Assembly: GCA_049598495.1 (NCBI GenBank)
Contig: JBMYNR010000011.1
Location: forward strand, 1 to 46,774
Length of the DNA stretch: 46,774 nucleotides
Source: Opitutales bacterium
GTDB lineage: Bacteria; Verrucomicrobiota; Verrucomicrobiia; Opitutales; Coraliomargaritaceae
Direction of reading: 5' to 3'
The notes beneath the pieces were generated by a model. The model did not search any database, had not been told where the DNA came from, and worked only from the letters and a program-made list of their open reading frames with translations. Positions 4,448 to 22,349 of the stretch are shown one piece after another (positions within the stretch are counted from its first letter, which is position 1; each line of letters starts with the position of its first letter). The translations under genes and the position numbers were made by a program.

Positions 4448-4759
4448 TCGGACTGAGGCCCTCTGGCGCTTAGAAGTTTGAGTTTTTTCGAGGTGCTGGC
4501 TACGATGCAGGTTTTCTAGTGAAGTCGTTATCGCTCATCACTGTCTGATGTTCAATTTTCGTCGGATTGGATCAGTGGACGATGAGCGGTTATCAGCGGT
4601 ATAAAATGCGGCCCATTATGCTAAGCTCCTTTGCCATATGTCCCGGAGCGGCGATGAAGTTTAGGGGTGGCCTCCCTTCGGTCGATTTCGCCTGTGGGAT
4701 TTTTAAACCGCTAAAGGACGCTGAATTTTCGCTAAAAACCGAAGAAGGCAAGACTCGGA

Positions 4760-4866
4760 CCCGGCATCGACTGGGGTCGAACCTGCGCCGTCAAGTTTGG
4801 CGGACAAGCGGTCTCCGTCTGTTCGTAGCTCTGCACACGTCGACGCGAAGGCGTCACATTACTACA
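4760..4866. repeat. Degenerate copy of the GTAG REPIN
   Basis: aacctgcgccg...cggacaagcg...gttcgtagctctgcacacgtcgacgcgaaggcgtcacattactaca aligns with 44-130. Its GTAG supplies the TAG stop (4862-4864) of the convergent kinase-like ORF. Confidence 0.8.
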
Positions 4867-16969: not shown

Positions 16970-16990
16970 CTTTGAAAGTGTTTTAGATGT

Positions 16991-17430
16991 CTCACGCGAA
17001 GAACGCAGAGACGCAAAGTTATTCAGGTAGGTTGTTTACTATGCGAGCGATACCCTCCTTCATAAGAGGCGCTCCAAAATTAAGGAGAAAGCCAAGTTTC
17101 TTATCTGTGAGTTTCAGATGCGAAAGTAGCTGCTTGTTATGTGAACGATGAAGTTGTTCGATAGATTTGAGTTCGACGATGACTTTGTCCTGAACGACCA
17201 GATCTGCACGAAAACCCTCATCAAAATACTCACCTTCAAAGTGAATCGGAACCGGCACTTGTCGTAGAACTTTTAGGCCGCGCTTTTCAAGCTGATGGGC
17301 TAAGATCACTTCATAGACATGCTCAAGAAGACCCGGGCCGAGTGCCTGATGGATTTTCACAGCTGCATCTATAATCTCAGCACCTATTTCGTTCTCATCC
17401 ATCTTTGCGTCTTTGCGTTCTCTGCGTGAG
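16991..17430 (-). mobile_element. Putative GxxExxY cassette (IR-ORF-IR, 440 bp) between gatA and gatB
   Basis: 28-bp inverted repeats at 16991-17018 and 17403-17430 (25/28 identical) directly abut the stop and the start codon of the GxxExxY ORF. Confidence 0.7.
17019..17402 (-). CDS. GxxExxY protein (PD-(D/E)XK nuclease-like superfamily)
   Basis: IH..LGPGLLEHVY, FRADLVV..KVIVELKS, QLLSHLKLT..KLGFLLNFG; 127 aa. Confidence 0.95.
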   Translation of the reverse strand: MDENEIGAEIIDAAVKIHQALGPGLLEHVYEVILAHQLEKRGLKVLRQVPVPIHFEGEYFDEGFRADLVVQDKVIVELKSIEQLHRSHNKQLLSHLKLTDKKLGFLLNFGAPLMKEGIARIVNNLPE

Positions 17431-17438
17431 GCGATAAA

Positions 17439-18905
17439 TCAAAGCGTCGGTGTCGCATTATGGTAGTCGTGAGCTTGCTCAAAAGCGCGAGCAACGGCGA
17501 ACATGTCGGCTTCGCCGAAGGCCTTTCCGATAATCTGTAGGCCAATCGGGAGCCCATTCTCTGTGAATCCACTCGGAATCGAGATGGCTGGCAGTCCAGC
17601 GAGATTCACCGAGATGGTGAAAATATCACTGAGATACATCGCCAAAGGATCATCCGAACGTTCGCCTCGATTAAAGGCAGGAGTCGGCGAGGTTGGCGAG
17701 AGAATCGCATCGCATTGCTCGAAAGCTTTTTCAAAATCTCCGAGAATCAAGCGGCGCACCTTCTGGGCACGAAGATAATAAGCATCATAGTATCCCGAGC
17801 TGAGCACATAGGTTCCAAGAATAATACGGCGCTTCACCTCATCCCCGAAACCTTCACCCCTACTTTTACTAAATAAGCTCAGTGCATCCTTGGCCTCTTC
17901 ACTTCGGTGACTGTAGCGTACTCCATCAAAACGGGCGAGATTCGAAGAGGCCTCCGCAGTCGCGACAATATAATACACGGGCACCGCAAGTTCCGAGTTG
18001 GGCAGGGAAATGTCGATTATCTCACAGCCCTGCTTCTTATACCAGTCAATGGCTTGCTCGATATTGGCCTTCACTTCAGGGTCTATGCCCTCTCCGAAAA
18101 ACTCTCTTGGCACGCCCAATTTCCACGGACCCTTCTTCTCTTTAAGAAGCTCCGCGTAGTTGGTTTCGCCCTGAGGGGAAATAGAAGTCGAATCCAAATC
18201 ATCCTTACCAAGCATCGCCTCCATCAGAATCGCAGCATCCTCAACTGTACGTGCAAATGGCCCAACTTGATCAAGAGACGAGGCAAAGGCCACGAGACCA
18301 TAACGGGAGATGAGACCATAGGTCGGCTTCATACCAACCACACCGCAGAGCGCAGCTGGTTGACGAATCGAGCCGCCCGTATCGGTGCCCAGTGTGGCAA
18401 TAGCCTCACCCGCAGCTACGGCGGCCGCGCTGCCGCCGGAAGAACCACCGGGAATCTTTTCCAAATCCCAGGGGTTGGATGTGATTTGGAAAGCTGAGTT
18501 CTCGGTTGATGAGCCCATTGCAAACTCATCCATATTCAAACGTCCGTAAATGATAGCGCCTGCCTCACGAAGCTTGGCGATACAGGTGGCATCAAAGGGC
18601 GATACATAGTTTTCCAGCATCTTGGATGCACAGCTCAGCGGCTGGTCCTTCACAGCGAGTATGTCCTTGATGCCGACCGGGATACCGTCCAAGCGTCCTC
18701 GGCTCTCGCCAGCAGCGCGGCGTGCATCCGAAGCCTTGGCCTGTGCCAATGCATCTTCAGCATCCAAGTGAAGGAAGGCCTTCACCTTGCCATCAACAGC
18801 CGCGGTTCGATCGATCACCGCTTGAGTCAGTTCAACCGAGGTCAACTCACCTGCTTCAAGCGCAGCGGACAACTCGGTGATGGTTTTGAAATAGAGTTTG
18901 GACAT
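17439..18905 (-). CDS. gatA: Glutamyl-tRNA amidotransferase subunit A
   Basis: Amidase signature GGSSGGSAAAV, LGTDTGGSIRQPA, EASSNLARFDG, EVKRRIILGTYVLSSGYYDAYY. Confidence 0.98.
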   Translation of the reverse strand: MSKLYFKTITELSAALEAGELTSVELTQAVIDRTAAVDGKVKAFLHLDAEDALAQAKASDARRAAGESRGRLDGIPVGIKDILAVKDQPLSCASKMLENYVSPFDATCIAKLREAGAIIYGRLNMDEFAMGSSTENSAFQITSNPWDLEKIPGGSSGGSAAAVAAGEAIATLGTDTGGSIRQPAALCGVVGMKPTYGLISRYGLVAFASSLDQVGPFARTVEDAAILMEAMLGKDDLDSTSISPQGETNYAELLKEKKGPWKLGVPREFFGEGIDPEVKANIEQAIDWYKKQGCEIIDISLPNSELAVPVYYIVATAEASSNLARFDGVRYSHRSEEAKDALSLFSKSRGEGFGDEVKRRIILGTYVLSSGYYDAYYLRAQKVRRLILGDFEKAFEQCDAILSPTSPTPAFNRGERSDDPLAMYLSDIFTISVNLAGLPAISIPSGFTENGLPIGLQIIGKAFGEADMFAVARAFEQAHDYHNATPTL

Positions 18906-18924
18906 TTTTCTAAAACTGCGCCTG

Positions 18925-19017
18925 TTAACCGCTGAGTTCGCGGAGAGCGCGGAGTGTAAGAATGAAAAATCTACGTTTGAGTGGGCTCTATGGAGTCTCG
19001 GCGCTCTCTGCGGTTAA
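18925..19017. mobile_element. Empty (ORF-less, MITE-like) derivative of the GxxExxY cassette between gatC and gatA
   Basis: Arms ttaaccgctgagttcgcggagagcgcggag (18925-18954) and ctctatggagtctcggcgctctctgcggttaa (18986-19017) share the CGCnGAGnn periodicity of the cassette IRs; ~31-bp spacer. Confidence 0.65.
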
Positions 19018-19027
19018 TAAACATGGG

Positions 19028-19318
19028 CTATTCTACAACCTTCGGCACAAGGACTTGGTTCTCCCTGTGTTCCGGAGCCATCTTCGTGAGCACCTCCGGG
19101 CCCAAGGTTGCACCGATCTCGTCGCCCTCGCGCCAGACATTGTAGACTTTGTTGGCGTGAGCCATCGGCTCGACCCCGTCGACGTCCACAGCTTTGAGTT
19201 TTTCAAAATAGCCTAAGATATCGTCGAGTTGAGCGCCCAGTTTTGCCTTCCCACCTTCGCTCATATCGAGGCGTGCGAGATTCGCCACGTAGTCGATGTC
19301 CATCTGTGTATTTGACAT
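19028..19318 (-). CDS. gatC: Amidotransferase subunit C
   Basis: IDYVANLARL, QLDDILGYFEKL..VD..GVEP, VPKVVE; sits upstream of gatA. Confidence 0.96.
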   Translation of the reverse strand: MSNTQMDIDYVANLARLDMSEGGKAKLGAQLDDILGYFEKLKAVDVDGVEPMAHANKVYNVWREGDEIGATLGPEVLTKMAPEHRENQVLVPKVVE

Positions 19319-19321
19319 AAG

Positions 19322-19349
19322 AATTTAGAAGTTAGGAGTTGGAATGATA
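19322..19349. repeat. Short 7-bp-periodic tract between pheT and gatC
   Basis: aatttag/aagttag/gagttgg/aatgata. Confidence 0.4.
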
Positions 19350-19393
19350 AAATTACTTAGAGTGAACTTCGGGAAATCTCTGCACCGAATCAA

Positions 19394-21853
19394 TTATTTC
19401 CTGATTTGGTAATCGGTTTTCTCGGTGATCAACGTCTGAATGCCCTCGAAGGCTGCATTGACCTCTTTGTCCTTCAGTGTGCGATCGGCAGCGCGAAAGC
19501 TCATCGTTACGGCAAGGCTCTTCTTACCTGCGGGCAGACCTTCCCCTAGGTAGACGTCAAAAATACGAACGCTTTCACAATCGAACCCCTTGGTAGCCTT
19601 CTTGGCAAATTTGGCGATCTCACGCTCCACATTACCCGCCTGAACAGAGGCGTCTACAATCAAGGCCAGGTCTTTCGCTGATGCCGGCTGATTACTAATG
19701 CCGAGATGGCGCCCGAGTTTGGCCTTACGCTCGAAGAACTTTGGTGTCATCAGGATGGAGCCCGCGATGACAGGCGTCGTCAAGTCCCAGCGATCCTTCA
19801 AAGTAGCTACATTCAAAAGACCACAAGTCGCTTCAAACCCCATCTTTGCGAAATCGCCTGCGTAAGCGGCGTGCCCCCCCTGCCAGAGCTTGCAGTTGTC
19901 GATCGGATGGAAACTGAGTTTATTTGCTGCAGTGCCCGCGATCTCGAGCAGTTCACCGGCAATCGACTTGGCGGTATAGAAATCGGCGAGCTCACGCTGC
20001 CGCCATTCACGGCTGATCTGATCCGCGACAATTACGAAGCCAACCGATATTAGCTCCATCATTTGCCCCTTCACCTGGCGGTAAACATGACCGCGCTCAA
20101 AGAATCGCGTGGCACCGGTTCCTCGGGCCGCATTTAGCTGGAGCACATCGAGGAGTCCGGGTATCAAGGATGGGCGCAAGTGGCTTTGGTCGCTTTGCAA
20201 AGGATTATCAAGCGCGAGCACCTGGTAGTTCTCTTCGCCGAAGAAGAATTTCGTCTCGTCCGGATCACGGAGCGAGTAAAGGAAGGCCTCGTTGAAATTC
20301 TGCCCGGTAAGATAATCGGCAACCGCCTCATTCACAGTGTAAATGCGGTGATCGTCCTCAGATATCCCACGTGCAACGACCTCCGACTCGGGAATCTTGT
20401 CAGTGCCGTAGACGCGCACAAATTCCTCGATCAGATCGACCTCCCTCAACAGGTCCCCTCGGAATGACGGAATGGACACTTCCCAGCGAGTGCCACCAAC
20501 TGCCTTGTCGTGGATCGAAACATCCAAGCCAAGCGATTCGAGTGTGCTCTGAATCTCATCATCACTGACATCGAAACCGATGAAAGCGCGCACCCGATCC
20601 GGATTTAAGATGATCTCAGTCATCGTAGGCGGCTCCGCCCCCACCGAGATCATGTCGCCATCGACCCGACCTCCGGCAACCTCAAGAATAAGATCCGCCG
20701 CTCGCAACAACGCGTAGGTCACTCCCAGGGGGTCCACACCACGTTCGAAGCGATAGGAACTGTCCGAAGACAAGCCGAGTTTACGCGAAGTCGCACGCAC
20801 TGAAGAAGGTGCAAAATAAGCGGCTTCAAGCACAACATCCGTCGTCGAATCGTCGACCTCGGCATCCGACGAACCCATGACACCCGCAACAACGAGCGGC
20901 CGTCCGGAATCTGCAATCACCGCCATGTTTGCATCCAGTGTGCGTTCAACTTCGTCCAGCGTCGTGATCTTCTCCAAATCTTCCGCCATGCGAACGACCA
21001 ACTTGCGACCCTTGATCTTAGCCGCGTCAAATGCATGAAGAGGCTGACAGGTTTCGTGCAGCACATAGTTAGTCACATCGACCACATTATTGATGGATCG
21101 CTGCCCGGTTGCTTCGATCGCATCTTTAAGCCACTTCGGGCTTGGACCAACCTTCACACCCTTGATACAAATTGCGGTGTAATGCGGGCATACTTCGGAA
21201 GCACTCACTTCGACACCGGAAATGAGCGCTTCACCTTCGGATCCGTTCTCTGTGCTCGCCTTGACCTCGGGGTATTTCACCGCAAGTCCGAACTTCGCGG
21301 CCAACTCGCGGGCCACGCCGATGTGGCTCAGCACATCCACCCGATTGGGAGTGATTTCCAGATCAAATACGGTGTCCCCGTCAGCGAACAACTCGTTTAC
21401 CGGCGTGCCCAAATCCGTTCCGGGATCAACAATCATGATGCCGTCGTGGTCCTGACCGATCTGTAGTTCCTTGGCGGAACACATCATACCCGCCGAGGGT
21501 TGTCCTCGAAGCTTGGAAGCCTTGATCTTAAAGTTACCCGGCAGCACCGCTCCGGGGAGCGCCACCATGACCTTGTCGCCTTCCTTAAAATTCTTAGCAC
21601 CACAGACGATATCGTGGACTTCCCCCTCGTTGCCTGTGCTCACCTTGCAACAGCGCAACCGATCGGCATCTGGGTGTTGACCATATTCAATTACCTGACC
21701 GACGACAACATTTTCAAGCTGGGGCGGACCAAGCTTCTCGTGCTCTTCAATATCGAAACCAAGCAGCGGGAGAACCTCGGCCAAGACTTCCGGCGAGTGC
21801 TCAACCGGATCGAGGTCAATGTAGTTTTTGAGCCAATTATAGGAAATTTTCAT
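19394..21853 (-). CDS. pheT: Phenylalanyl-tRNA synthetase beta subunit
   Basis: MKISYNWL, HPDADRL, IVCGAKN, LEITPNR.D.LSHIGVARE, SSYRFERGVD, C-terminal FDX-ACB domain. Confidence 0.98.
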   Translation of the reverse strand: MKISYNWLKNYIDLDPVEHSPEVLAEVLPLLGFDIEEHEKLGPPQLENVVVGQVIEYGQHPDADRLRCCKVSTGNEGEVHDIVCGAKNFKEGDKVMVALPGAVLPGNFKIKASKLRGQPSAGMMCSAKELQIGQDHDGIMIVDPGTDLGTPVNELFADGDTVFDLEITPNRVDVLSHIGVARELAAKFGLAVKYPEVKASTENGSEGEALISGVEVSASEVCPHYTAICIKGVKVGPSPKWLKDAIEATGQRSINNVVDVTNYVLHETCQPLHAFDAAKIKGRKLVVRMAEDLEKITTLDEVERTLDANMAVIADSGRPLVVAGVMGSSDAEVDDSTTDVVLEAAYFAPSSVRATSRKLGLSSDSSYRFERGVDPLGVTYALLRAADLILEVAGGRVDGDMISVGAEPPTMTEIILNPDRVRAFIGFDVSDDEIQSTLESLGLDVSIHDKAVGGTRWEVSIPSFRGDLLREVDLIEEFVRVYGTDKIPESEVVARGISEDDHRIYTVNEAVADYLTGQNFNEAFLYSLRDPDETKFFFGEENYQVLALDNPLQSDQSHLRPSLIPGLLDVLQLNAARGTGATRFFERGHVYRQVKGQMMELISVGFVIVADQISREWRQRELADFYTAKSIAGELLEIAGTAANKLSFHPIDNCKLWQGGHAAYAGDFAKMGFEATCGLLNVATLKDRWDLTTPVIAGSILMTPKFFERKAKLGRHLGISNQPASAKDLALIVDASVQAGNVEREIAKFAKKATKGFDCESVRIFDVYLGEGLPAGKKSLAVTMSFRAADRTLKDKEVNAAFEGIQTLITEKTDYQIRK

Positions 21854-21886
21854 GAAAGATAGATATAACCACTCCAGCGCTTTATA

Positions 21887-22336
21887 AACCGCAGAGAACG
21901 CGGAGAGCGGGGAGAAGAAAGGAGTTATGATTCTGTATGATTATTGACAACTCGACGGATGCCGTCTTTGAGAAGTGGAACGTTGAAATTGATTAGATAA
22001 CCGAGCGTGCAGCCCGAAAGTTTTAAGTAGGTTAAGAGTTGTGCCATGTGGACGTTGTTCAGTTCATCAACCACCTTGAGTTCGAGGATGATTTCATTCT
22101 CTACAATTACATCAATTCTATAGGCTTCATCGATCTCGAGCCCCTTGTAACGAATCGGTTACTTCTTCTGGTCGAACCGCCTTGATACCTTGCAGGTTCA
22201 ATTCGAGAGCCAAGCAAGCCTCGTAGGTGCTTTCCAGAAGACCAGGACCGAGTTCTCGATGCACCTCAATTGCGGCTCCGATAATCTTATCACTTAGTTC
22301 ATTCATTTCTCTGCGCTCTCAGCGTGCTTTGCGGTT
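21887..22336 (-). mobile_element. Second GxxExxY cassette (decayed) between pheS and pheT
   Basis: 30-bp inverted repeats at 21887-21916 and 22307-22336 (25/30). The upstream IR abuts the ATG; the downstream IR lies 8 nt beyond the stop. Confidence 0.7.
21925..22306 (-). pseudogene. Frameshifted GxxExxY protein gene (absent from the ORF track)
   Basis: Manual translation: [45 protein letters not shown], a net +1 frameshift near 22159-22171, then [77 protein letters not shown]. Confidence 0.9.
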
Positions 22337-22349
22337 AAGAAAAGGTATC

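Follow-up and report, generated by a model that had tools for sequence, protein, structure and literature searches.

What occupies the gene junctions of the pheS-pheT-gatC-gatA-gatB operon in a contig of an Opitutales bacterium (assembly GCA_049598495.1, contig JBMYNR010000011.1; the whole stretch of 46,774 nucleotides is referred to as the window), and how did it come to lie there? The operon is on the minus strand, its gene names were confirmed, and its features are listed in Table 1. Three of its four junctions carry a pair of inverted repeats (arms), as had been predicted from the sequence, but the prediction that the three pairs are related held only in part: the gatA/gatB arms (28 nt, 89% complementary) are of one type (A), while those at gatC/gatA (82% complementary over 22 nt) and pheS/pheT (21885-21912 and 22311-22338, 22 of 28 positions matching) match each other and form a second type (B). 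The contents of the pairs were as originally predicted, with an intact GxxExxY gene between gatA and gatB, a frameshifted and diverged paralogue (44-46% identity to the gatA/gatB gene) that also contains a stop between pheS and pheT, and no gene between gatC and gatA, where the arms are 49 nt apart or, if taken as about 31 nt long, enclose a loop of about 31 nt (RNA fold z = -3.3 for this pair). The protein of the pheS/pheT paralogue is about 90% identical to intact copies found at gatA/gatB of relatives. Compared by eye, the periodic tract at the fourth junction looks like a 3' arm belonging to a PF05635 cassette found at another place in this genome. A weak test for a sigma-70-like site on the sense strand of the cassette found none.

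Table 1. Positions of cassette-related features in the window and of PF05635 matches in the source genome.
Feature	Position	Strand	Remark
3' arm, type A, three CRCnRAG words	16991..17018	-	ends 21 nt ahead of gatB ATG
Intact GxxExxY gene, 127 aa, PF13366/TIGR04256	17019..17402	-	gatA/gatB junction; profile match
5' arm, type A	17403..17430	-	abuts cassette ATG; 8 nt past gatA stop
gatA 3' tail, exchanged along with the junction	17439..17475	-	comparison of alleles
Type-B arm pair without gene, gatC/gatA	18925..19017	-	arms 18925-18946 and 18996-19017
7-mer periodic tract preceding gatC (fourth junction)	19320..19347	-	likely 3' half arm of a PF05635-type cassette
3' arm, type B, pheS/pheT	21885..21912	-	inverted repeat
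Broken GxxExxY paralogue, pheS/pheT	21925..22306	-	+1 insertion near 22170; stop at 22159-22161
5' arm, type B, pheS/pheT	22309..22338	-	11 nt past pheS stop
PF05635 matches, source genome	C42:11555, C21:13786, C60:346, C31:5226, C23:838, C15:17779 and others

The protein encoded at gatA/gatB scored above the cut-off of the PF13366 profile, which was its sole domain match; the profile search found no HUH, Y1 or DDE domain. In line with the small PD-(D/E)XK-like protein that had been anticipated, its predicted structure (pLDDT 95) has a PD-(D/E)XK fold, and RecB-type motifs are present in 180-184 of 184 family sequences. The best structural matches are modest (Cas4 SSO0001, E = 2.6e-3; 3ijm, VIA Z 8.5, rmsd 3.4, 101 aligned), an ESM Atlas search returned matches solely from the GxxExxY family itself, and no solved structure of a close relative was found. 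Conservation among the 184 sequences is nearly complete at E27 (184), D67 (183), E77 (182), K79 (184), Q91 (180) and Y95 (173), residues that correspond to the four motifs defining RecB-like nucleases in the part of PMC2602864 that describes them, and these near-invariant motifs make the GxxExxY protein a predicted RecB-like PD-(D/E)XK nuclease. The window protein keeps E27, D67, E77, K79 and Q91; its codon 95 (17118-17120) encodes histidine in place of the usual tyrosine, giving a QxxxH motif seen in 6 of the 184 members. As in Cas4-like RecB nucleases the four defining motifs are present (PMC2602864, in part), whereas the GxxExxY protein stands alone at 127 aa and has no invariant cysteines. 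Identity as a junction resolvase was considered and rejected, the match to T7 endonuclease I reaching only E = 0.58 and Hjc folds Z 5-6, neither of which singles it out; the literature gives the function of PDDEXK_3 as 'Unknown'. Seven of eight type-B proteins are mutually 83-98% identical (the eighth 72-76%) although about half of the synonymous sites differ, so that, judged from these alignments, purifying selection on them is as strong as on GatA and GatB.

Each arm is built from words of the consensus CRCnRAG, three of them in 139 of 210 arms, spaced by 8 (155 cases) or 9 (105 cases), so the predicted period of about 9 was partly right. An inverted-repeat score of at least 16 was obtained for 90 of 138 family genes, compared with 1 of 500 other ORFs of the genome and 34 of 600 mismatched flank pairs, and after further loci had been added, such arms were found at 109 of 184 GxxExxY genes from many phyla, a sample in which the subfamily of the window gene is over-represented because 80 loci were chosen for likeness to it. 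GxxExxY genes thus do not generally lack such repeats, nor are the repeats as frequent beside other genes, the two outcomes named beforehand as speaking against the original prediction, and gene plus arms behaves as a family-wide unit. The source genome (1.75 Mb) has 13 profile matches at 10 GxxExxY loci (6 intact, 4 broken); an arm pair is visible at nine of the ten, with a different sequence at each, and at nine both neighbours are co-oriented, as expected from the predicted placement in housekeeping junctions. Outside the pheST-gatCAB operon, both neighbours are co-oriented for only 56 of 96 armed cassettes, as judged by crude ORF calls. No common functional neighbourhood was found around the ten divergent paralogues of the source genome. 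The gene is present in 148 of 301 genomes sampled from the order, with up to about 10 copies per genome, and occurs in many phyla; among mobile replicons, carriers amount to 7 of 72,556 plasmid records, 0 of 50,697 phages and 7 viral contigs with another subfamily. A search of Rfam gave nothing credible. In the 105 cassettes with parsable words, the word-final G is present in 87 of 87 members of the GPG subfamily compared with 2 of 18 others; since this coupling is a single deep split on a quick protein tree with intermixed phyla, it indicates joint inheritance and not recognition.

The gatA/gatB junction differs even among close relatives. In 16 genomes of the genus, 4 carry a full cassette (two of each type), 1 carries arms around another insert and 11 have 2-66 nt, so that the cassette is not a fixture of this junction in all relatives, which had been named as a possible refutation. 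Fourteen metagenome loci, retrieved with a 26-nt pattern that lies immediately 5' of the gatA tail, brought in additional forms: empty, nested or with other cargo. Site fidelity also occurs, another genus having full cassettes at all three junctions. One cross-genus pair shares 66 identical nt spanning stop, arm and ATG at the same junction, with fewer synonymous differences in the cassette (29/93) than in the host genes (412/698, p = 4e-7), pointing to a recent transfer at that junction; most other pairs have no such sign. For most type-B pairs cassette divergence equals host divergence, which suggests long residence.

Alleles from natural populations were obtained from contigs of 4 of 22 listed seawater runs, which could be placed on the operon. 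The intact gatA/gatB gene was present in X4 (which may be the window's own source) and X6. In X7 and X13, from two studies, a 321-nt internal deletion (17050-17370) leaves both arms in place, one 9-nt unit of the 5' arm being lost as well; the sole empty derivative seen forming thus arose by internal deletion, and the expectation that empty derivatives are left behind was borne out in this form. At pheS/pheT, X13 has a cassette-free allele (one contig, one run) in which the 497-nt insert is replaced by about 13-14 other nucleotides from stop codon to ATG, with no target duplication at this site. Further alleles replace 16970-17475, including the last gatA codons, and 18828-19070, with short anchors, and one 7-nt unit of the tract preceding gatC has been lost in two populations. 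None of the four runs reverts the +1 insertion of the pheS/pheT copy while the stop is missing in three of the four, indicating stepwise decay. On a 3.3-kb contig of X4, three of four differences lie within 7 nt of the gatA tail. In-frame read-through of the inserts holds for the population deletion and for two duplications (the latter judged by eye), but was rejected as a rule, as it fails for the empty gatC/gatA element and for another deletion.

Comparison of alleles at one junction revealed no intergenic DNA in common. Their breakpoints coincide with the stop and the start codon or fall 20-55 nt deep in the upstream gene, and whole-junction replacement among close relatives takes along 20-55 nt of that gene's tail. 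In 16 close pairs (gatA body identity 91-100%), identity over the last 30 nt of gatA was 60-70% where the junctions differed (5 pairs, 2 independent events) and 83-100% where they were alike (11 pairs); a wider tail control gave 1/86 as against 5/16, the control including non-genes. At leuB/alaS, where the flanks are 97-98% identical, a GxxExxY cassette in one genome stands against a PF05635 cassette in its sister genomes, a difference that extends to the leuB tail. Synonymous conservation peaks beside the junction (gatB codons 1-10, 0.73 compared with a mean of 0.49; gatA codons 461-470, 0.60 compared with 0.45), which is only suggestive because an internal gatA window scored higher. The position of the breakpoints makes recombination by the host, with conserved coding DNA as its anchor, the preferred reading of how alleles are exchanged within a junction.

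When different junctions are compared, homology ends at the outer arm ends. Shared flank k-mers in 104 cassettes did not exceed the control, giving no sign of a target-site duplication, and among 194 cassettes no near-identical copies were found at unrelated loci other than tandems and passengers of a MITE. This MITE (G016, loci L162 and L168-L171) has terminal repeats of about 25 bp and 9-bp target duplications, and has spread a GxxExxY cassette, mostly in deleted form, to several loci; the near-identical dispersed copies of that genome, at one point considered as transposition of the cassette, are really the MITE that captured it. Both cassette families show tandem duplications that comprise an arm, the ribosome-binding site and the first codons of the gene behind it, and in G323 two paralogues (L196 and L205) that are about 80% identical overall are identical over about 60 nt in the 3'-arm region, suggesting conversion between arms; together the duplications and this identical region point to breakage or conversion at the arms.

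The source genome also has nine matches to PF05635, the IVS four-helix protein (L271-L279), and most of these genes lie at operon junctions between inverted arms of 7- to 12-mer periodicity. Their cargo is no nuclease, and such cassettes use the same junctions and swap with the same tail signature; in one close pair, what came in may be a 7-mer hairpin without a gene. Host recombination alone can therefore give the swap pattern. No description was found in the literature on the four-helix protein and repeats. With regard to expression, the stem predicted for the mRNA would bury the AUG of the cassette and leave the start of the next gene free, and the 5' arm ends at most 12 nt from the gene start in 50 of 90 cassettes. 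There was no excess of G-U over A-C on the sense strand (72 vs 81); paired units are more alike than unpaired ones, a comparison biased by the arm-picking procedure.

We read these units as arm-bounded single-gene cassettes that sit in the stop-to-start gaps of operons and are exchanged whole, with a predicted nuclease that likely binds its own arm words and breaks the DNA there, a reading to which we assign a probability of roughly 0.42. The unit consists of arm, gene and arm, co-oriented and with no promoter-like site found on its strand; its alleles share neither intergenic DNA nor a target duplication and break at stop or start codons or in the upstream gene, 20-55 nt deep. They would be copied when the host recombines incoming chromosomal DNA by homology, with the closest conserved stretches of coding sequence as anchors. 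The protein may read the three CRCnRAG words of each arm in double-stranded or cruciform DNA and nick or cut nearby; because it would bind and break its own arms, the junction would become a recombination hot spot, with more exchange at arm-bearing junctions and, rarely, movement of a unit to another junction. Arms predicted to pair in the mRNA would bury the gene's own start and limit expression. Copies decay through frameshift, stop and internal deletion, and the empty arms left behind are replaced or nested in by other cassettes. A nuclease acting on its own arms at the DNA level is proposed as the trigger in view of the retained catalytic site, the conservation of the word in different phyla, the lack of an RNA-strand bias among mismatches and the clustering of rearrangements at the arms. 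Against this reading counts above all that the non-nuclease PF05635 cassettes swap in like manner. The equal divergence of cassette and host in most type-B pairs, the single contig behind the cassette-free pheS/pheT allele and the share of co-oriented neighbours outside the operon also speak against it, cutting its own arms alone does not favour the full allele, and the word-protein coupling loses weight as support for recognition since linked inheritance explains it.

The cassette might instead be passive cargo, moved only by homologous or homology-facilitated illegitimate recombination of the host, with a nuclease that serves the host in defence, as a toxin or in repair and arms that act as operators or as a throttling RNA stem. 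We consider this unlikely but give it real weight because the non-nuclease PF05635 cassettes swap in the same way; segment replacement is also common in bacterial microdiversity, according to part of PMC2884548, and the protein is conserved as strongly as GatA and GatB. Such a role fits poorly with the 4 of 10 broken genome copies, with populations that lose the gene yet keep the arms, and with ten divergent paralogues, with arms of their own and no common functional neighbourhood, in a genome of 1.75 Mb. Improbable, in our view, is an RNA-level intervening sequence, in which pairing of the arms in the polycistronic mRNA would let RNase III remove the unit, as it does with 23S rRNA IVSs, and RNA would be the substrate of the protein. 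A 28-bp terminal stem around an ORF recalls the Coxiella IVS, and the 23S rRNA IVSs, as far as described in a portion of PMC4990558, share with the cassette a single ORF in a stem of about 28 bp (predicted here), patchy distribution, horizontal gain and ORF decay; their cargo family builds the sister cassettes at the same operon junctions, and the greater likeness of paired units, with its bias from arm picking, would fit as well. The missing G-U excess and the RecB-type motifs, which indicate DNA, argue against it, and movement is left unexplained; moreover, the cassette lies between protein genes and has a PD-(D/E)XK cargo (PF13366) and periodic word-array arms, PF05635 cargo being confined to the sister cassettes.

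Two further explanations rely on the protein for movement. Transposition of the RAYT or IS kind, with excision and insertion of the arm-bounded unit and amplification of empty copies, would account for homology between junctions that stops at the outer arm ends and for one other arm type at about 20 genome sites in mosaic clusters, and RAYT/REP/REPIN systems, as outlined in part of PMC3116915, likewise tie a nuclease-type gene to its own inverted repeats and include gene-less intergenic hairpins. We regard it as quite improbable: target duplications and recent dispersed copies were lacking in the 104 and 194 cassettes surveyed, no HUH or DDE domain was found, the arms enclose the gene, and the arm types of the window are not amplified, only about five further similar sites having been noted in the genome by eye. 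The original suggestion of a mobile or selfish cassette is thus upheld for a mobile, family-wide unit with empty derivatives, whereas the RAYT/REP mode is not upheld for these arms, whose empty form results from internal deletion and whose breaks lie in flanking coding DNA; insertion sequences and MITEs differ in two respects, target duplication and near-identical copies at unrelated loci (tandems and MITE passengers aside). Classical intronless homing, in which the nuclease cuts a cassette-free allele in the flanking gene and the unit is copied in with co-conversion, appears very improbable to us. The co-converted coding flanks that mark homing endonucleases are found here, and the T4 seg/mob genes, in the portion of PMC2988022 devoted to them, are also promoter-less intergenic nuclease genes between conserved genes with co-converted flanks; the cassettes differ in being chromosomal, with many paralogues, cognate arms, short tracts and proteins about 90% identical at unrelated junctions, and 127 aa would leave little room for long-site recognition, nor does homing explain the arms.

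The unit is built like an ORF-bearing 23S rRNA IVS and inherited like a free-standing homing endonuclease, and lacks the transposase domain that defines RAYT/REPIN systems as well as the target duplication and dispersed copies that define insertion sequences. Within a search confined to freely accessible articles without supplements, no description of the arms was found in literature on GxxExxY, PDDEXK_3, PF13366 or TIGR04256, and the cassette is likely a selfish element, hitherto undescribed, whose spread relies on recombination by the host. More tentatively, it may represent a new class of selfish chromosomal element in which a 127-residue nuclease reads and breaks its own three-word arms and drives host recombination into operon junctions across many phyla, in competition with the IVS four-helix family. 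If the nuclease drives exchange, it would be among the smallest sequence-directed nucleases, and the cassette would spread selfishly by a new route, altering the C-termini of essential proteins as it does so. What the window contributes are the population alleles and the swapped gene tails; since the data now define the unit, its candidate binding word, a measurable conversion tract and, from one natural population, exact alleles of the full, deleted and empty kinds, the mechanism is directly testable.

Several other arrangements were observed. Another arm type of the family occurs at 4530-4800 of the window and at about 20 genome sites in mosaic intergenic clusters, and the same dispersed arm type is repeated at neighbouring junctions around tmk (contig C46 of the source genome). 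Arm pairs at L184, L042, L188 and L047 enclose other cargo, namely an unrelated short ORF, an insert resembling REP or a further arm pair whose type differs, and downstream of a gene at L107 (3245-4850) lie its own 3' end in several tandem copies plus a 5'-type arm. At gatA/gatB of L182, L190 and L195, one or two extra units come after the full cassette. Each comprises gatB's first 78 nt, an empty hairpin and a ribosome-binding site, and stays open in frame as far as the arm end; the loops vary from unit to unit.
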